From Planctomycetota bacterium (GTDB lineage: Bacteria; Planctomycetota; B15-G4; SIAN01), in the NCBI GenBank assembly GCA_031409275.1, contig JANNXA010000050.1:1-64000 (forward strand): a stretch of 64,000 nt of DNA. Reading direction: 5' to 3'. The translations under genes were made by a program, and so were the position numbers. Position 1 is the first letter of the stretch, and each line of letters starts with the position of its first letter. The notes under the pieces are model-generated. The model saw only the letters and a program-made list of their open reading frames with translations, was not told the origin of the DNA and ran no database searches. This document shows positions 45,524 through 56,256 of the stretch, piece after piece.

Positions 45524-47764
45524 TCACGAACCGGCGGCGGGCGGTGGCGGCAACGTGAAGAGCGCGTCATCGAGCGCGACGTTCACCTCCGCTTGCTCGA
45601 ACTGGAGGATCATCTTGCCGATGTCGGGAGACTGCGACTCGCGGTGGAACGCGAGCTTCATGCCACCGACGTTGCGAACGTCGCTGAGGAGCGCGATGGG
45701 TAACGCGACCGGAAGCGCCGGGAACGCGACGCCGCCCTCGATCGCCACCGTACGGAAGTCCTTGGCCGACACGTAGAAGCCGGACGGGTTGCCGCCGGCG
45801 GTCGTCACCTTGACGGCGTAGCAACGTTCACCGAGCGCCACGCCGATCCCGCTGTTGAAGACGGTGCCTTGCAACTCGACTTCGTCGGCGACATCGAGCC
45901 AGGAGCCCGCCATCGCCAGCGGGTTGGCCAGCAGGTTGGCGGCGACCTCTTCCGCGTTCAGCTCCGGCTTGCTTCCGAGGTGCGCGGCGAAGGTGCCGCG
46001 GCCGCCGGCAACGATCAGCGTCGACTTGCCAAACGGCGAGGCGTCGAAGTCGATGCGCAGATCGTCGGGCCCGCGCGCCAGCAGGGTGTAGCGGCCGACG
46101 ACGCCCGCCTGCGGGTAGCGCATCGTGCCGGTCATGCGCAGCGTGCGAATCGCGGTCGCCGCGTCGCTGCCCACCGCGAGCGAGCGCTTCTCGAAGAACT
46201 CATCGAGCGTCAGGTCGGAGCTGGTCGTGGCCACGACGCTGTTCACCGCCTTCATCCGGCGGACGGCGTAGCCCTGCGTCAGCGTCAAGGCCAGCGCGTG
46301 CCCTTCACTGTCCTGCTGGATCGAGATCCACGAATCGGGCTCCTCCTTCAGCCAGCAGCGCCCTTGCGCATCGGGCCACCCCAACGTGTAGGCGGTCGTC
46401 GCCCACTGTCCGAGGCCCGGAGGAATCACCAGCACGAGGCGGCCGTTGATGACGACCAGTTGATTGTTGGGGCGTCCATCGATGCCGCCGGTGAAAGCGC
46501 CTTCGAGCTTCTCGCACGCTTCCTTGGTGAGCGGCGCCCCTTCGACCAGCGGACGGCGCTCCTTCCACGGGCCGAACAGTGCATCGAAGACCAGCGGGAA
46601 GATGCCCGACTGCAGTTGCGTCTGGCTCGTGTTCGACAGCATCACGAGGCCGCAGTCGCGATCGTGCAGCATCCCGACCGCCGTGGCGTAACCCGGCACG
46701 TTGCCGCCGTGCTCGATCACCCTGTGCTTGCCGCCGTCGGCGTCGCGCCACTCCTGGCCGTCGTCGGTGTGGAGGAACCAGCCGCGGCCGTAGGAGGGCT
46801 TGAGGTCGTCGTCATCGCTCCAGAGGTGGTCGATCTGCGCATCGCTGACCAGCCGCGAATCGCCCCACGCGCCGCGCTTCAGCAGGAAGCGCACCCACTG
46901 CGCCATGTCGACCACGTCACCGTAGATGCCGCCCGCCGCGGCCATGTTGTCGAGGTCGAGCCAGTCGACCGGGGTGAACGTCTGCTTCGCGGAATTCCAG
47001 TCGTAGCGCTTGGAGAGCAGCGGATCGGCGAACGCCACGTCCGCCGACGACGTGACGCGCTTCATCTCGAGCGGCTGGAAGATGCGCTCGGCCAGCAGTT
47101 CGTCGTAGCTCTTGCCGGTGACTTCGGCCGCGCACTCGCCGGCCAGCAGGAACATGGCGTTGTTGTATTGCCACGCCCCCTTGAAGGGCGTCTGCTTGTC
47201 GGTTCCGGCCAGCAGTTGCAGCAGCTCGCGGCGGGTCGCCGGCGTTCCGAGCCAGGCGACGTCGGTGCGCGTCAACCCGGTGCGATGCGAGAGGATGTCA
47301 TCCAGCGTCGCCTGCGCATCGATGTCCGAGTCCTTGAATCGGAAGTCGGGCAGCCACGTCGCCGGCCGCGCCTTCCAATCGAGCTTGCCCTCGTCGACCA
47401 GCATCGCGCACAGCATCGACGTGAACGCCTTGCTGGCCGAGCCGATGGCGTAGCGCGTGCGCTCGGTCGCGGCGACCTTCGCCTCGCGATCCGCGAGCCC
47501 GAAACCGCGCGCGAAGATCAGCTGATCGCCCTTCACGATCGCGAGCGAGAGGCCGCTGATGTGGAGCATCTCGCACCGCGCGTCGAGATCCTCGCTCAGT
47601 CGCGACAGCCGCATCTCGAGCGTCGGCTCGTCTCCAACCGGCGCGGCCAGCGGGGCCGACGCGACCGCGGCGAACCATGGCAAAGCGAAGGCAGCGATCA
47701 CGCGAAGGCTCCGTGGCGGGAAGAAATTGGCCCTGGCTGCAGATGCCGCGGTTGGACGCAACAC
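45524..47764 (-). CDS. Secreted serine hydrolase (beta-lactamase class C/PBP-like) with C-terminal extension
   Basis: SxxK (GSASK), LSHRTG, YNN, HGG. Signal peptide; the true start may be GTG ~47702. Confidence 0.85.
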   Translation of the reverse strand: MLRPTAASAARANFFPPRSLRVIAAFALPWFAAVASAPLAAPVGDEPTLEMRLSRLSEDLDARCEMLHISGLSLAIVKGDQLIFARGFGLADREAKVAATERTRYAIGSASKAFTSMLCAMLVDEGKLDWKARPATWLPDFRFKDSDIDAQATLDDILSHRTGLTRTDVAWLGTPATRRELLQLLAGTDKQTPFKGAWQYNNAMFLLAGECAAEVTGKSYDELLAERIFQPLEMKRVTSSADVAFADPLLSKRYDWNSAKQTFTPVDWLDLDNMAAAGGIYGDVVDMAQWVRFLLKRGAWGDSRLVSDAQIDHLWSDDDDLKPSYGRGWFLHTDDGQEWRDADGGKHRVIEHGGNVPGYATAVGMLHDRDCGLVMLSNTSQTQLQSGIFPLVFDALFGPWKERRPLVEGAPLTKEACEKLEGAFTGGIDGRPNNQLVVINGRLVLVIPPGLGQWATTAYTLGWPDAQGRCWLKEEPDSWISIQQDSEGHALALTLTQGYAVRRMKAVNSVVATTSSDLTLDEFFEKRSLAVGSDAATAIRTLRMTGTMRYPQAGVVGRYTLLARGPDDLRIDFDASPFGKSTLIVAGGRGTFAAHLGSKPELNAEEVAANLLANPLAMAGSWLDVADEVELQGTVFNSGIGVALGERCYAVKVTTAGGNPSGFYVSAKDFRTVAIEGGVAFPALPVALPIALLSDVRNVGGMKLAFHRESQSPDIGKMILQFEQAEVNVALDDALFTLPPPPAAGS

Positions 47765-47822: not shown

Positions 47823-48617
47823 TCACCGCGGCACGTCGAGCGCGCGCAGCTGCTCCAACGCGACTTCGCCGTGGAGCCGCTTGCGCCAGTTCTCGGTGAG
47901 GAAGGTCCCGCCGAGGTGGCCGGCGCGATCGAAGAAGAGGATCGCCGGCCGCGCGAGGTCGCCGCCGCGATGGACGTCGGCGCCGGCATGGCGCAACCCG
48001 AACTCATCCACCAGCTTCAACTCAGGATCGGAGAGCAGCAGGAAGGTGATCCCCTCCTGCTTCGCCAACGCGGCAAGTTCGCCCGGCGAGTCCTTGGAGA
48101 CGACGACGACCGTGCCGCCTTCCGCCTCGATCGCGGCGAGAGAGAGCTGCAACACGCGCAGCTCGCGCACGCAGAAGGGTCACCAGAAGCCGCGAACGAA
48201 CGCCAGCACCACCTTCCGGCCGGCGAGGCGGCCGCTGCGCTGCTCCTCCGCGAGATCGAAGGTCGAGCCGTCGGCGGCGGTGCAAGCGATCGCGGGCAGC
48301 GAGCGGCCCGTCACGAGCTTCGCCGCGACGGCGGGCGGCAGCGCATAGGTCGCATCGCGAGTGAAGAGGAAGAAGAGGCCTGTCACTCCCGCGGCGAGCG
48401 TGAGGCAGAGGCCGGCGATGAAGCGATCGGCGCGCAGCGCGCCGGCCGGCGGCCTCAACACCGCGTGCGTGGCCACGGCGAGGCCGACCAGCTGCATCAC
48501 CCACAGCGGCAGGTCGTGCTCGCCGAAGCCTGGGTTCTTCGCCCACCAGCTGAAGTAGCCGAACGTCGCGAGCGCACAGAGCGCAACACCGAAGAGAGCG
48601 CGACCGGTCGCCTTCAT
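47823..48617 (-). CDS. Membrane-anchored AhpC/TSA-type redoxin selenoprotein (UxxC); single gene read through TGA 48180-48182
   Basis: Track ORFs 48180..48617 and 47823..48170 are in the same frame and join as VVLAFVRGFW-TGA-PFCVREL. Downstream VVVVSKD, FLLLSDP, ARPAILFFD. About three N-terminal TM helices. Confidence 0.85.
48144..48164 (-). promoter_or_regulatory. Candidate bacterial SECIS element
   Basis: GAGCTGC-GCGTGTT-GCAGCTC hairpin starting 15 nt 3' of the TGA. The loop begins with G, 22 nt from the TGA. Confidence 0.6.
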
Positions 48618-48627
48618 CGACGGCGGC

Positions 48628-50044
<1,417 letters not shown>

Positions 50045-50052
<8 letters not shown>

Positions 50053-51295
50053 GGTGGCGTTCCTTGCTGACGGTCGGAGGGGCGCCAAGGACCGCATCGC
50101 GCTGCTCGCGCAACTGCGGCGTCATCTCGGCGAAGACGTCGGTGAAGAGCGATTCGAGCGGCGGCTCCTGCCCCGCTTCGGCCGCGCGGATCCCATCCGA
50201 GATCGTCGACTGCAGCTCTTCCTCGATCGCCTCTTCCTTCTCCTTGGTGAGGAGGCCGAGCGCGTGGAGGTGCTTGCGCAGTCGATCGATCGGGTCCTGC
50301 GCTTCCCACTTCTCGACTTCGCAGGCGTCGCGATAGCGGGTCGGATCGTCGGAGGAGGAGTGGCCGAGGCGTCGGTAGGTCAGCGCCTCGATCAGCGTCG
50401 GCCCGCCGCCGCTGCGCGCGCGCTCGACCGCTTTCCTGGTCACGGCCAGCACGGCGAGCACGTCGTTGCCGTCGACGCGCACGCCCGGCATGCCGTAGGC
50501 CGAGGCCTTCGCGGCGATCGAACGGGCCGCGGTCTGCTTGCTGACCGGCACCGAGATCGCCCACTGGTTGTTCTGGCAGAAGAAGACGACCGGCGCCTTG
50601 CGCACGCCGGCGAGGTTGAGCGCGCAGTGGAAGTCATGCTCCGAGGTCGCGCCGTCGCCGAGGTAGCCCATCGCGACGATCGGATCCTTCTTCAGCTGCG
50701 CCGCCATGGCGACGCCGACGGCGTGCATCAGCTGCGTCGCGATGACGCTCGACATGGAAATGAAGTTGGCCGCGCGGAAGCTGTGGTGGCAGGGCATCTG
50801 GCGCCCCTGGCTCACTTCGCTGCCCTTGCCCATGCACTGCGCGATCAGCCGCTCGATCGGCAATCCGCGCCACAGCGCGACGCCCGCCTCGCGCAACGCC
50901 GGCGCCACCCAATCGCGCGCTTCGAGCGCCGCGGCGCTGCCGATGATCGCCGCCTCCTGACCGGTGCACTGGCCGAAGAAGCCGATGCGCCCTTGGCGCT
51001 GCAGGTTCAGCATGCGGCCATCGAGCGCACGGATGCGCAGCATGCCGCGGAAGAGTTCGATCATCTGCTCGGGAGGAACGGACGAACCGCCGGGACCGCC
51101 GACCCACTCGCCATCGGGCGCGAGCAGGCGCAGCGGCGTGTCATCGACCGCGGCGGCGCTCGCGGGCGGCGCTTCGGCGGCGATCGGCGAGCGATCGATC
51201 ACGGGGCCGCCATCGCCACCGTCGCCGGGGTCGTGGCGGCCCGTATCGGACACCGTCTTCTTGGGGTTGCGGCCGCTCACGATCGGCTCGTTCAC
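50045..51295 (-). CDS. 2-oxoacid dehydrogenase E1 alpha subunit (second copy)
   Basis: LQRQGRIGFF, GQEA, GRQMPCH, GDGATSE...NNQWAIS, GHSSSDDP. Confidence 0.93.
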
Positions 51296-52638
51296 AGCGT
51301 GCCGAGCAGGAGGCGGCGCGGATCTTCGAGCAGCGCGAGGATCTCGTTCATGAAGCGCGCGCCGTCAGCTCCGTCGACGATGCGATGGTCGATCGAGACC
51401 GACAGGTTCATCATCTTGCGGATGACGATCGAGCCGTTCCGAACCATCGCGCGATCGGCGATCTTGTGGACGCCGAGGATCGCCACTTCGGGGAAGTTGA
51501 TCACCGGAGTCGCGAGGATGCCGCCGATGTTGCCGGCGTTGGTGATGGTGAAGGTCGAGCCGGTCACTTCGTCGAGCGTGAGCTTGCCTTCACGAGCGCG
51601 TCCGGCGAGGTCCTGCAGCGCGGCGCCGAGGTTCAGCAGCGAGCGCTGACCGGCGTCCTTGATGACCGGCACCACGAGCCCCTGATCCGTGTCGCAGGCG
51701 AAGCCGATGTGGTGGTAGTGCTTGACGACGATTTCCTGGCGCTCTTCGTCGAGCGTCGAGTTCAGCATCGGGAACTTGCGCAGCGCCGCGATGGTCGCCT
51801 GCACGATGAAGGGCATGTAGGTCAGCTTGACGCCGTGCTCGAGCGCGGAGGCCTTCAGCGACTCGCGCGTCTCGACCAACTGCGTCACGTCGCACTCATC
51901 GACGTAGGTGAAGTGCGCCGCGGTGCGCTTGCTCTTCTGCATGCGCTCGAGGATCTTCTTGCGGATGCCTCGCAGCGGCAGGCGCTCCTCGACGGCGGCG
52001 CCAGCGACCGGCGCTGGCGCGCGCGGCGGCGCGGCGCTCTTCGTCGACGCGGCAGCAGGTGCAGCAGCGGACGCCGCCAAAGGCGTGGCGATCGGAGCGG
52101 CGGCGACGGCGGCGATCGGTGCGACCACCGGCGCGCTGCGAGTCCGCGTGAAGGTCTCGAGGTCGGCGCGCGAGACGCGGCCGGCCGGGCCGCTGCCCGG
52201 AACGCTGCGCAGGTCGACGCCAAGCTCGCGCGCGCGGCGACGTACCGCCGGAGCGGCGAGCACGCGCCCGGCAATCAACTGCGCGACCGCGCCGTGGCCG
52301 TTGCTGGCCGCCTGCGCCGCGACGGGCGCGGCCGCTGCGCTGACGGCGGAAGCGGCGGCAGGAGCGGCGGCTTTGCCGTGCGCGCCCACCGGCGCCGCGA
52401 CCTGGGTCGCGATGACGGCGATCACCGTTCCGATCGGGACCGTCGTGCCGGCCGCGACCTTGAGCGACTTGATCGCTCCGCTCACCGGCGCCGTGATCTC
52501 GACGGTCGCCTTGTCGGTCATCACTTCGACGAAGGGGTCGTTCTCCTTCACCGACTGTCCTTCCTGGACCAGCCAGCGCGTGATCTCGCCCTCCGCGAGC
52601 CCTTCGCCGATGTCAGGAAGCTTGAACTCGTAATCCAC
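51292..52638 (-). CDS. Dihydrolipoamide acyltransferase (E2)
   Basis: Lipoyl domain (EVMTDKA), Ala/Pro linkers, subunit-binding domain (APAVRRRARELGVDL), DHRIVDG. Confidence 0.96.
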   Translation of the reverse strand: MDYEFKLPDIGEGLAEGEITRWLVQEGQSVKENDPFVEVMTDKATVEITAPVSGAIKSLKVAAGTTVPIGTVIAVIATQVAAPVGAHGKAAAPAAASAVSAAAAPVAAQAASNGHGAVAQLIAGRVLAAPAVRRRARELGVDLRSVPGSGPAGRVSRADLETFTRTRSAPVVAPIAAVAAAPIATPLAASAAAPAAASTKSAAPPRAPAPVAGAAVEERLPLRGIRKKILERMQKSKRTAAHFTYVDECDVTQLVETRESLKASALEHGVKLTYMPFIVQATIAALRKFPMLNSTLDEERQEIVVKHYHHIGFACDTDQGLVVPVIKDAGQRSLLNLGAALQDLAGRAREGKLTLDEVTGSTFTITNAGNIGGILATPVINFPEVAILGVHKIADRAMVRNGSIVIRKMMNLSVSIDHRIVDGADGARFMNEILALLEDPRRLLLGTL

Positions 52639-52700
52639 GGCAGTCGCTCCATTGCAGGACCGCAGGCGCGCGCGGTCCGATTTCAGATTTCAGAGGTCGA

Positions 52701-53675
52701 TCAGAAGCGGACCACCTTCAGCACCGCCTCGCGGATGCGTCCCGGCTCCGGCAGATAGACGCTTTCGAGCGTGTAGGGGAACGGGGTGTCGAAGCCGGCG
52801 ACCCGCACGATCGGAGCCTCGAGCCACTCGATCGCCTTCTCGGCGAGGATCGCGCTGATCTCGCCGCCGAAGCCGCCGGTCTTCGGCGCCTCGTAGACGA
52901 TGACCGCGCGCCCTGTCTTCTTCACCGATTCGAGGATCGTCTCCTCATCGAGCGGCACGAGCGTGCGCACGTCGATGATTTCGCACTCGATGCCCTCTTC
53001 GGCGCACTTGGCCGCCGCCTTCTCGCACATGCCGACCATGCCGCCCCACGCGATCAGCGTGACGTCCTTGCCGGGCCGCACGAGGCGCGCCTTGCCGAGT
53101 TCGACGACGTACTCGCCCGCGGCGACCTCCTCTTTCAAGGTGCGATAGACCAGCTTCGGTTCCATGAAGAGGACCGGGTCGGGATCGCGGATCGACGCGA
53201 GCAGCAGCCCCTTCGCATCCGACGGCGTCGACGGCACGACGACCTTCAAGCCGGGAGTGTGGGCGAAGTAGGCCTCGGGGCTCTGCGAGTGGTAGTGGCC
53301 GCCGCGAATGCCGCCGCCGATGGGCGTGCGAATCGTCATCGGGACGGTGTACTCGCCGCCCGAGCGGTAGCGCATCTTCGCCGCCTCCGACACGATCTGG
53401 TCGAAGGCGGGATAGATGAAGTCGCCGAACTGGATCTCGGCGATCGGCACGAGGCCGTAGAGCGCCATGCCGATGGCGGCGCCGACGATCCCCGACTCGG
53501 CGAGCGGCGTGTCCATCACGCGGTCGCCGCCGAACTCCTTCCAAAGTCCGGCCGAGCAGCCGAAGACGCCGCCCTTGATGCCGACGTCTTCGCCGAGCAG
53601 CACCACGCGCGGATCACGGCGCATCTCGACGCGCAGCGCGTCGTTGATCGCCTCCACCATCGTCATCACGGCCAT
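52701..53675 (-). CDS. 2-oxoacid dehydrogenase E1 beta subunit
   Basis: GEDVG..GGVF, DTPLAE, EIQF, HSQSPE. Confidence 0.96.
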   Translation of the reverse strand: MAVMTMVEAINDALRVEMRRDPRVVLLGEDVGIKGGVFGCSAGLWKEFGGDRVMDTPLAESGIVGAAIGMALYGLVPIAEIQFGDFIYPAFDQIVSEAAKMRYRSGGEYTVPMTIRTPIGGGIRGGHYHSQSPEAYFAHTPGLKVVVPSTPSDAKGLLLASIRDPDPVLFMEPKLVYRTLKEEVAAGEYVVELGKARLVRPGKDVTLIAWGGMVGMCEKAAAKCAEEGIECEIIDVRTLVPLDEETILESVKKTGRAVIVYEAPKTGGFGGEISAILAEKAIEWLEAPIVRVAGFDTPFPYTLESVYLPEPGRIREAVLKVVRF

Positions 53676-53757
53676 CTTCGTTCGCTCCTGCCATCTGCGG
53701 TCGCGTTCGCCGCGCCCCGCCTCGACTCACCGTTGATCGCGATCCACGATCCGTCCG

Positions 53758-54873
53758 TCAGAGCGGGAACTCGCCGTGATGGCCCTTGCTCATCACGCCG
53801 CGCTGCAGCGCATCCTTCAGCTCTTCCCACTGCGCCTCGAGCTGTTGCGAGCGCTTGGCGAAGACGTCGTCGAACATCGTCGAGACGGCCGGCGGACCGA
53901 CCTTCTCCGCGGCCTCGATCGCGGCCTGCAGTTCCGCCTCGCCGCGCGCGCGGATCTCCTGCTCCTGCGCGGGCGAGAGCATCTTCTGCTGCTCGAGCCA
54001 CGCCTTGAAGCGGTCGATCGGATCGCGCTTCTTCCAGACCTCGCACACCTTCGGGTCGCGGTAGCGCGAAGGATCGTCGGAGGAAGAGTGGCCGCCCATG
54101 CGGAAGGTCACCGTCTCGATCAGCGTCGGGCCCTGGCCGGCGCGCGCGCGCTCGACCGCCTGCTTGGTTGCGGCGTAGACGGCGAGGACGTCATTGCCGT
54201 CGACGCGCACGCCCGGCATCCCGTACGCCTCCGCCTTCGCGGCCATCGTCGCCGACGCGGTCTGCCCTTCGAGCGGCACCGAGATCGCCCAGCCGTTGTT
54301 CTCGCAGACGAAGATGCACGGAGCGGCGTAGACGCCGGCGAAGTTCATGCCGGTGTGGAAGTCGTTCGAGGAGGTCGAGCCATCACCGAAGTAGGTGATC
54401 GCGACGTGCGGCTCCTTGCGGATCTTCATCGCCATCGCCGCGCCGACCGCCTGGATGATCTGCGTGCCGATCGGCGAGGAGATGCTGACGAAGTTCTTCT
54501 TCTTGTAGCTGTAGTGCACCGGCATCTGGCGGCCGCGCGTGTTGTCGGCGGCGTTGCCGTAGCACTGGTGCATCATCTCGGCGACCGAGACACCGCGCAG
54601 CAGGGCGATGCCGGGATCGCGGTAGGACGGGAAGACCCAGTCGGCGGCTTCGAGCGCCGCGGCCGAGCCGATGTGCGACGCCTCCTGGCCCAGCGCCGGA
54701 ACGTAGAAGCCGATGCGTCCCTGCCGCTGCAGCTTCATCGCCCGCTCGTCGAGCTGGCGCGTCAGCACCATCACTCGATAGATCTCGAGCAACTGCTCCT
54801 TCTTCAACGCGGGCGCGGCGTGGTTCGCGGCCGTGCCGCTCTCGGCCATGACCTGGACCAACTCGAGGGTCAT
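53758..54873 (-). CDS. 2-oxoacid dehydrogenase E1 alpha subunit (branched-chain/pyruvate type)
   Basis: LQRQGRIGFY, PSYRD, GRQMPVHY, GDGSTSS...NNGWAIS, GHSSSDDP. Confidence 0.95.
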   Translation of the reverse strand: MTLELVQVMAESGTAANHAAPALKKEQLLEIYRVMVLTRQLDERAMKLQRQGRIGFYVPALGQEASHIGSAAALEAADWVFPSYRDPGIALLRGVSVAEMMHQCYGNAADNTRGRQMPVHYSYKKKNFVSISSPIGTQIIQAVGAAMAMKIRKEPHVAITYFGDGSTSSNDFHTGMNFAGVYAAPCIFVCENNGWAISVPLEGQTASATMAAKAEAYGMPGVRVDGNDVLAVYAATKQAVERARAGQGPTLIETVTFRMGGHSSSDDPSRYRDPKVCEVWKKRDPIDRFKAWLEQQKMLSPAQEQEIRARGEAELQAAIEAAEKVGPPAVSTMFDDVFAKRSQQLEAQWEELKDALQRGVMSKGHHGEFPL

Positions 54874-55841
54874 GCAGACGCTCCTGGAACTTGCGTCGAA
54901 GGGGCGGAAACGGGCACGGGCTGGCCGAGGACCGGCAGCAGCGCACCGCGCGCGCGAAGATGCGATTCAGCAAACAGCTCGCCCGCTTTGTACGAACTGC
55001 GAACGAACGGTCCGGAGGCGACGTGGAGGAACCCGCAGCTCAACGCGAGCTGGCCGAGCACCTCGAAACGGTCCGGCGGCACGAACTCGACGACCGCGCG
55101 ATGCTTCTCGCTCGGTCGCAAGTATTGGCCGAGGGTGAGCAGATCGACGCCGACGGCGCGCAGGTCGCGGAACGTCGCGACGAGTTCGTCCTCGCGTTCG
55201 CCGTGACCGATCATGATCGACGACTTGGTCAGCGCGGCGGGCTGCAGCTCCTTCAGCCGTCGCAGCACCTGCAGCGACTGGTCGTAGCCAGCGCGCGGAT
55301 CGCGGACCGAAGGGGTCAGTCGACGCACCGTCTCGACGTTGTGCGCGAGGACATCGGCACCGCAACCCGCAATCGTCGCGAGCGCGGCCTCGTCGGCCCG
55401 GAAATCAGGGATCAGCGTTTCGACCAGCAGGCCCGGCACATGCGTTTTCACGTGCGCCACCGTGGCCGCGAAGTGACCGGCGCCCTGGTCGGGCAGGTCG
55501 TCGCGATCGACCGACGTCAGGACGATGTAGCGCAACGCCATCTGCTGCACCGCTTCGAGGACCTTCTGCGGCTCCTCGACATCGACCGGTTCGCCGCGCC
55601 GCGCCGTCTTCACCGAGCAGAAGGAGCAGCCGCGCGTGCAGAGTTCGCCGAGCAACATGAACGTGGCGGTGCCGCCGCTCCAGCACTCGGAAAGGTTGGG
55701 GCAGCGCGCCTCTTCGCAGACGGTGGTCAGGCGCAACCCCTCGACCAGCGAACGGAGCTTCCGGTAGCGCTCGCCGGTGGGCGGGCGGATCTTCAACCAC
55801 TCCGGCAGCGTCGCGTGAGTCGCCAGGAATTCCTCGCCCAA
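54870..55841 (-). CDS. lipA: Lipoyl synthase
   Basis: CEEARCPNLSEC (CX4CX5C), CTRGCSFC, HNVETV, GQYLRP, RSSY. Stop overlaps the E1-alpha ATG. Start uncertain (no ATG). Confidence 0.95.
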   Translation of the reverse strand: MGEEFLATHATLPEWLKIRPPTGERYRKLRSLVEGLRLTTVCEEARCPNLSECWSGGTATFMLLGELCTRGCSFCSVKTARRGEPVDVEEPQKVLEAVQQMALRYIVLTSVDRDDLPDQGAGHFAATVAHVKTHVPGLLVETLIPDFRADEAALATIAGCGADVLAHNVETVRRLTPSVRDPRAGYDQSLQVLRRLKELQPAALTKSSIMIGHGEREDELVATFRDLRAVGVDLLTLGQYLRPSEKHRAVVEFVPPDRFEVLGQLALSCGFLHVASGPFVRSSYKAGELFAESHLRARGALLPVLGQPVPVSAPSTQVPGASA

Positions 55842-56256
55842 CCCCCGGCCGCAGCACGCCCTTCGATCGGGGCGCCGGAAAACCGCGTCGTTCTTCCAGA
55901 AAGTGTTATCCAGCAACCACTTACGTAAATGCTGGAAGGGCGCGGCAGTTTACCGACCGAGCCCCGGGATTCAAGGTGAGCGCGGCCACCGCCAGCCCGC
56001 TCCGAGGCGGCACGGTAACCCCTCGAGGGAGCGATCCGCGCGCTCCGCCATTCCGAGATGCGCAAAGCCGCACAATCAGGGTCGCGTGAACCCTTGACGC
56101 CGCGGGCCCTCCCCGGGGGAAGTTCCGTTCCAGGAACCGCTCGCGAAACCTCCAATCGGTGGTACGGCATTCGTACAGCAGTTCACGCGTCGGCTTGGCG
56201 CCGACCCGGGGGATTGGAAAGAAGACGAGGAGTGGAAGGAAGACGGGGAGAACGCC

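Follow-up and report, generated by a model that had tools for sequence, protein, structure and literature searches.

A class of peroxiredoxin (Prx)-like selenoproteins is already known. Table 1 of a 2026 review (PMC13188914, section 7, parts 1 and 2 of 3) lists a Prx-like thiol:disulfide oxidoreductase (PF00578, UxxC/UxxU) that is "predicted with high confidence", together with a cd02970 selenoprotein (UxxS) and a redoxin (PF08534, UxxC), both predicted; those parts hold no separate row for a form with three membrane helices. In 2008, 225 "Prx-like 1" selenoproteins were counted in the GOS data (PMC2398784, Table 2), and in Dataset S1 of that paper RGFWU occurs 32 times and RGHWU 30 times. One of its entries under "#Prx-like 1", JCVI_READ_1095467476295, is hydrophobic in its N-terminal region, carries RGFWUPFCVSEL after it and matches, by eye, the three-helix locus L040 of our collection. 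The membrane-anchored form has thus been publicly available since 2008. We found no description of the anchor: the word "transmembrane" occurs zero times in the main text of PMC2398784, and a description of a three-helix selenocysteine (Sec) form was not found in the literature searched, a scope outside which most subscription journals and other supplements fall. A further relative is PRX-like2, which according to PMC3514251 combines a Prx-like sequence with a thioredoxin CXXC motif, lacks the Prx catalytic trait and acts by a mechanism that is called unclear.

The gene analyzed here lies in a window of 64,000 nucleotides, by which we mean the whole stretch of DNA that was studied. Its features are as follows.

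47823..48617, minus strand: whole gene, 264 amino acids and a terminal TGA stop
48617-48615, minus strand: start codon ATG, 10 bases past the lpdA stop codon
48543..48599, minus strand: predicted membrane helix 1, residues 7-25 (hydropathy; AlphaFold helix 3-23)
48456..48512, minus strand: predicted membrane helix 2, residues 36-54 (hydropathy; AlphaFold helix 36-54), with a likely cytoplasmic, Arg-rich loop after it
48366..48422, minus strand: predicted membrane helix 3, residues 66-84 (hydropathy; AlphaFold helix 62-86)
47901..48308, minus strand: AhpC/TSA-Redoxin domain, residues 104-239, peroxiredoxin-type thioredoxin fold (Pfam and fold match)
48180..48182, minus strand: in-frame TGA, read as putative Sec146 from the frame translation and the conserved TGA, first position of UxxC
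48171..48173, minus strand: Cys149 (TGC), the second residue of UxxC, unchanged in 68/68 members and aligned with the peroxidatic Cys of peroxiredoxins
48144..48164, minus strand: bacterial SECIS-type hairpin with an 8-bp stem and a 5-nt loop CGUGU, G second, the loop starting 23 nt past the TGA
47946..47948, minus strand: Pro224, at the position of the catalytic Arg of true peroxiredoxins, Pro in 59/68 members
48628..50097, minus strand: dihydrolipoamide dehydrogenase (lpdA-type), upstream neighbor and the final gene in a cluster for lipoyl synthase and 2-oxoacid dehydrogenase

A preliminary description of this DNA had proposed that an internal TGA, placed exactly at the first Cys of an RGxWCPFC motif on the minus strand, hides a selenoprotein that gene callers split in two. 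The minus strand indeed reads ttc tgg tga ccc ttc tgc at 48188-48171 and, with TGA translated as U, 48617-47823 yields 264 residues with U146 within RGFW-U-PFC and a terminal TGA. The frame runs on through a complete redoxin fold, as had been claimed: the match to PF00578 (AhpC-TSA; residues 104-234, E 7e-17, 61.9 bits against a cut-off of 26) spans the TGA, and PF08534 is matched with E 1e-12. ORF calling with table 11 divides the gene into 48180-48617 (145 aa) and 47823-48170 (115 aa). The same split is real in public gene calls, where all four matches of a protein search are 145-aa N-terminal halves that end in RG[F/H]W and where the 110-aa C-terminal half of a relative, P0029, is also present. 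The start position (ATG/GTG, MKATGRAL) is common to L009, L010, L028 and P0003-P0005, and the terminal TGA is a true stop, because an orthologue in G003 has TAG at the equivalent place.

The genome (92.9% complete) contains selA (E 5e-145), selB (2e-99), the tRNA-Sec gene selC (76 bits) and selD (6e-101), all above the curated cut-offs, so that all four genes for which a search had been suggested were found. The selD gene has an in-frame TGA of its own. It lies directly downstream of selA on the same strand (G000:C40:252211-254558), the tRNA-Sec gene is located on this contig too, about 47 kb from selA/selD, and selB on a different one. Furthermore, 10 of the 20 redoxin-fold matches of this genome, including the present gene, have TGA at a redox Cys column, and Sec use in this fold is therefore routine here. 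The nine other frames, on G000 contigs C34, C45, C27, C7 (two), C16, C23, C47 and C9, comprise two true Sec-peroxiredoxins (TPGU), one ATUPTC, five W-U-GPC and one TUHNC type; four of the five W-U-GPC frames have an identical hairpin score and loop.

The TGA is conserved in relatives. Among four congeners that were searched, three contain an orthologue (77, 61 and 55% identical), and all three have TGA at column 146 together with the same stem; the congener without a match is 78% complete. The pattern RGFW-U-xx-CV-x-EL, applied to genome DNA, recovered 44 loci with titles from Planctomycetota, Verrucomicrobiota and one Dehalococcoidia, 35 of which have a hydrophobic N-terminal region and nine of which are of a soluble Prx-like type. 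In metagenomes, a pattern that permitted TGA, TGC or TGT, although drawn from Sec-type sequences, gave TGA in 116/120 among the matches listed, the four Cys rows among them being without helices. In L026 and L036, two loci of the same order, a YRAFW-U-PYC redoxin is joined to an exported N-terminal domain, and in L036 the redoxin is followed by an additional C-terminal domain.

These data bear on whether the TGA might instead be a true stop, resulting from a nonsense mutation, a pseudogene or an assembly error, and the gene encode a membrane protein of 145 aa. That form is indeed what gene callers record. However, the TGA stands at the same Cys column, between intact flanking frames, in orthologues as little as 55% identical and in well above 100 distinct loci; the letters at the TGA recur unchanged in contigs from X2 and X3, runs of the same study, so that a second run has it too; and its presence is linked to Sec genes. 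The sequencing runs listed as containing the sequence include no RNA run. A contig of another study, X8, was left out of this support, the TGA lying near its end and one unlisted difference being present. We consider a true stop extremely improbable, and a nonsense mutation or read error as the source of the TGA can for practical purposes be excluded.

A different possibility is an altered genetic code in which TGA specifies Trp, Gly or Cys. The database protein P0069 has Trp at this column (RGNWWPYC), possibly through translation with code 4 or 25. On the other hand, TGA closes this gene and many of its homologues at a place where others have TAG or TAA; the internal TGA coincides with a redox Cys column both here and in the nine other redoxin-fold matches of this genome; and tRNA-Sec and selB are present. 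There is thus scarcely any probability left for a reassigned codon.

The hairpin that follows the TGA was examined separately. The published bacterial SECIS model asks for a loop of 3-9 nt, an upper stem of 4-16 bp and a G among the first two loop positions, and further for a distance of 16-37 nt from the UGA and an energy of <= -7.5 kcal/mol (PMC13188914, section 5 and legend to Fig. 2A). Nucleotides 48164-48144 can form either seven Watson-Crick pairs with the loop GCGUGUU or eight pairs, closed by G-U, with the loop CGUGU; the 7-bp hairpin with a G-led loop that had been reported is therefore present, and has 8 bp if the closing G-U is counted. The eight-pair form has an energy of -12.8 kcal/mol, its loop G lies 24 nt past the TGA, and it falls within all four limits of the model (5-nt loop, 8 bp, 23-nt spacing and the energy). 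By itself the hairpin proves little, because its stability does not exceed that of shuffled sequences in DNA so rich in GC (z -0.4 to -0.8 for folds of 31-63 nt and +1.0 for the 83-nt fold). When 3489 TGA ends were sampled from the long open frames of this genome, only 52 had an equally strong hairpin at the same distance. The published model is passed by 34/36 distinct TGA genes, versus 62/175 control positions in the same genes.

Comparison between relatives (35 distinct rows) gave stem pairing of 64%, versus 55% after shuffling and 30-42% in slid controls, a figure depressed by the roughly one-quarter of rows in which the hairpin takes a second register, closer to the TGA by three bases. 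Changes on both sides of the stem number 36 versus 13, a level reached in 0/500 shuffles; these covariation figures overstate the effect, because the paired columns were derived from Sec sequences and lie within conserved codons (E-L-x-x-L-Q) and the sequences are related. A strict register test, which is partly circular since the register and the paired columns were shaped on Sec sequences, was passed by 36/36 TGA rows of the phylum and 98/108 of the metagenomes, by 1/4, 0/4 and 2/9 Cys rows (3/17 in all) and by 230/3386 random TGC/TGT sites; two further TGA rows (L250 and L251) failed it. The loci L093, L133, L144, L155, L178, L096, L152 and L193 use another register, with the loop AGUU[G/A] 16 nt past the TGA, which brings the SECIS registers of the family to at least three (16, 20-21 and 23-24 nt). 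The SECIS search that the preliminary description had recommended thus found a hairpin that fits the model and is conserved and covarying across the family.

The association with Sec genes was followed in a sample of 301 genomes taken evenly from the phylum, using a profile of 68 sequences and counting as full-length those matches that start at model position <=14. There were 52 full-length matches in 51 of the genomes, 47 with TGA and five without a stop. The codon at the Sec column could be read in 44 of the 48 loci fetched, being TGA in 40 and TGC in four; some of these loci repeat earlier ones, and L231, L234, L242 and L248 were left out as having no motif match. A selB gene was detected in 45/47 TGA genomes versus 212/301 overall, numbers that are given as counts and not as a test, kin not being independent; likewise, 32/36 genomes behind the TGA loci (the 35 with a hydrophobic N-terminus plus G001) yielded selB. 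That 212 of 301 evenly sampled genomes have selB is in itself a high rate of Sec use. One TGA genome in which selB was not found, G015, has a split selA and tRNA-Sec. Counting against the Sec-gene rule is G165 (locus L230), a 90% complete assembly with the TGA form, a strong hairpin and a weak tRNA-Sec match (50.6 bits), in which selA and selB were not found; incompleteness of the assembly may or may not be the reason. In a second phylum sample (centered on G058, 251 genomes), two genomes have the three-helix form, both with TGA, and no additional Cys three-helix DNA was found.

Pairing of Sec with Cys at column 146 is seen in full-length three-helix homologues: U146 aligns to TGC in L215, L225, L232 and L233, and the column is Cys in many database proteins. 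Two genomes of one genus differ at this site. G235 has the TGA, the hairpin, selA, selB and tRNA-Sec; in G254 (91% complete) the codon is TGC, there is no hairpin, and selA, selB and tRNA-Sec were not found. The Cys forms of G280, G157 and G141, as well as the unread match without a stop in G126, are all in selB-positive genomes, and G141 carries both a Sec and a Cys form. A motif search of genome contigs for the Cys form (RGFWC[PTS][SF]CV) matched seven stretches, none of which was confirmed. When 1.84 billion representatives were searched with the profile, many full-length RGxWCxxC proteins with two to four hydrophobic segments were recovered, as well as N-terminal halves ending in RGFW and orphan C-terminal halves. 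The two named ones that have a taxon come from Myxococcota and Acidobacteriota. As a lead only, an ESM Atlas look-up with the Cys homologue P0014 led to AhpC/TSA-Redoxin clusters of comparable length that are most frequent in Acidobacteriota and Binatota. A quick tree built from 108 redoxin domains requires 21 changes between Sec and Cys, at least eight of them forced by well-supported branches, with their direction unstated and with the database rows biased towards Cys because Sec forms are cut. These repeated switches and the pair G235/G254 offer natural test pairs for the contribution of selenium to a membrane redoxin.

Taken together, the Sec machinery, the TGA in all three same-genus orthologues, the Cys/TGA pairing and the covarying hairpin bear out the proposal of a single 264-aa protein with Sec146; the genome does not lack Sec genes and the relatives do not all have TGC or TGT, either of which would have spoken against it. 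The internal TGA is almost certainly read as Sec in a real selenoprotein gene. With the frame, motif, hairpin, Sec genes and TGA conservation observed here, it is just as close to certain that SelB, bound to the hairpin, would bring Sec-tRNA to UGA146.

The preliminary description further held that the domain is fused to about three transmembrane helices, and that this is unusual. Three helices are indeed predicted, with 19-residue Kyte-Doolittle values of about 1.5 for helix 1 and about 1.3 for helix 2 (both only moderate) and about 2.2 for helix 3, and three hydrophobic segments occur in 66/68 family members. The second part of the claim was overstated: the architecture, found at 35/44 genome loci and in the 52 full-length matches of the phylum sample, is the normal one of a widespread subfamily. 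The N-terminal 96 residues match no Pfam family, and their single-sequence model (pLDDT 70) gives only generic helical-bundle matches (best Z 8.1). No Cys is conserved in the helices, where any column has Cys in at most 5/68 members, and the helices therefore likely anchor and position the domain rather than forming a thiol electron relay. Loop 2, which joins helices 2 and 3, has the most basic residues of all segments (mean of 2.6 K/R across members), and this would place the catalytic domain outside. In this protein, the four segments contain 2, 1, 3 and 1 K/R, again favoring an outward domain. By a crude count, the charge bias indicates a cytoplasmic N-terminus in 42/66 members; against an outward topology, the bias is opposite in 18/66 and absent in 6/66. 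We regard it as likely that the N-terminus and the Arg-rich loop 2 are inside and the catalytic domain is outside.

The opposite charge bias in those 18 members would suit another arrangement, modeled by analogy on the mycobacterial Lpd/DlaT/AhpD/AhpC chain, in which the domain of the same selenoprotein would be cytoplasmic and receive electrons from the neighboring dihydrolipoamide dehydrogenase and lipoyl proteins. The lpdA stop codon lies 10 bases before the start of the gene, and lpdA adjoins it in 4/4 same-genus genomes with the gene. However, among the loci fetched, which were checked by tblastn and of which 140 distinct ones were clustered, lpdA was seen beside the gene only in this genus, and the charge bias, in this protein included, favors an outward domain; the cytoplasmic arrangement is therefore improbable. 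As to the neighborhood itself, the window contains at 48628-55916 (minus strand) a lipoyl synthase-type radical SAM gene, E1-alpha, E1-beta, E2, a second E1-alpha and E3, the 2-oxoacid dehydrogenase cluster thus having two E1-alpha genes, one of them after E2. At 45524-47764 (minus strand) is an ORF of 746 aa that contains a beta-lactamase/serine hydrolase domain (PF00144, residues 66-383) and whose C-terminal half is unannotated; this ORF is also downstream of the gene in two congeners. The 336 crude ORF calls around the 140 distinct loci cluster only within lineages, and no conserved neighbor pointing to a substrate or electron donor was found among them; the largest neighbor set consists of 26 metagenome loci with one upstream gene, of which the fragment tested had no Pfam match.

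The AlphaFold model made with 68 sequences (pLDDT 95, pTM 0.90) consists of three N-terminal helices and a peroxiredoxin-type thioredoxin fold, whose best matches are AhpE/BCP (Z 22.5, rmsd 1.8 A, 152 residues aligned). This raises the main rival reading, namely that the same selenoprotein is chiefly a peroxidase for H2O2 or lipid hydroperoxides with Sec146 as the peroxidatic residue. Selenolates reduce peroxides well. The nearest folds and sequences are those of BCP/PrxQ/AhpE peroxidases, with Z 21-22 compared with Z 14-18 for ResA/TlpA oxidoreductases, which also counts against an oxidoreductase. The human prostamide/PGF synthase (9us9), a CXXC relative, is matched with Z 16.2 and rmsd 2.3 over 139 aligned residues; it converts PGH2 to PGF2-alpha (PMC12938796). 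Moreover, Arg142, which in 67/68 members occupies the position of the Prx Pro, and Arg247 (63/68) could stand in for the missing Prx Arg. On the other hand, the Prx triad is absent: the signature PxxxT/SxxC is replaced by RxxxUxxC, with Arg142 for Pro and Sec146 for Thr/Ser, and the catalytic Arg is replaced by Pro224. Likewise, the PRX-like2 proteins of PMC3514251 do without the Prx catalytic trait and have a thioredoxin CXXC. A peroxidase is thus possible, but unlikely.

Because the Prx catalytic set is absent and the description of PRX-like2 is matched, thioredoxin-type exchange is favored. On balance, our joint reading leans towards a membrane-anchored Sec-x-x-Cys protein that acts as a thioredoxin-type selenol/thiol oxidoreductase at the periplasmic face of the inner membrane. 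After delivery of Sec-tRNA to UGA146 by SelB on the hairpin, the three helices would hold the domain at the membrane with its catalytic side in the periplasm, where the Sec146 selenolate would attack a substrate disulfide (or peroxide). Cys149 would then resolve the Sec146 adduct to give a selenenylsulfide, which would be re-reduced by an electron carrier in the membrane, of the type of DsbD/CcdA.

We may also speculate, from the model, that the three-helix UxxC redoxins form a distinct, mostly selenium-using, membrane-integral class, in which the bundle would pack on the catalytic domain (pTM 0.90) and feed it a membrane substrate, e.g., lipid hydroperoxides or quinone. This is quite unlikely; if true, the class would be a widespread bacterial counterpart of membrane-protecting selenoperoxidases, and one that has stayed hidden because gene callers cut most of its members in two. 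The value of the finding lies chiefly in annotation, the gene being truncated by automatic gene calls, and not in a new recoding mechanism, fold or chemistry. In public records, the Sec forms are membrane halves of 126-145 aa ending in RGxW plus orphan C-terminal halves, which is why the family appears Cys-based in protein databases; in DNA, unlike in those databases, it is about nine-tenths TGA within the phylum sample (47/52).

Compared with known systems, the protein resembles "Prx-like 1" in its PF00578 domain, its UxxC motif (U146-P-F-C149) and its in-gene SECIS. It is 22% identical to L040, and both fall into one group of 17 rows in the quick tree of redoxin domains (SH-aLRT 86). It is like PRX_like2 (CDD cd02970), matched by description and not by profile, in having a thioredoxin-type motif and no Prx triad, and differs from the listed cd02970 selenoprotein (UxxS) in being UxxC. 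All ten members of alignment A1 match NF040769 (SelL-related redox protein) and ResA (NF002854), whereas the present protein is far below both cut-offs (41.2 versus 120 bits and 17 versus 170, respectively). With BCP/PrxQ and AhpE (5id2, 5epf, 3drn and 3hjp) it shares the fold (Z 21-22.5, rmsd 1.8-2.4 A, about 150 residues). Unlike true peroxiredoxins, it has neither PxxxT/SxxC nor the catalytic Arg and is attached to a three-helix anchor, and unlike Sec-peroxiredoxins (PxxxTxxU), it has Sec at the Thr/Ser position and not at the peroxidatic one. Finally, it follows the plan of the membrane-anchored CxxC-type oxidoreductases ResA/TlpA/CcmG, of which ResA and TlpA have one anchor helix and Cys instead of Sec.
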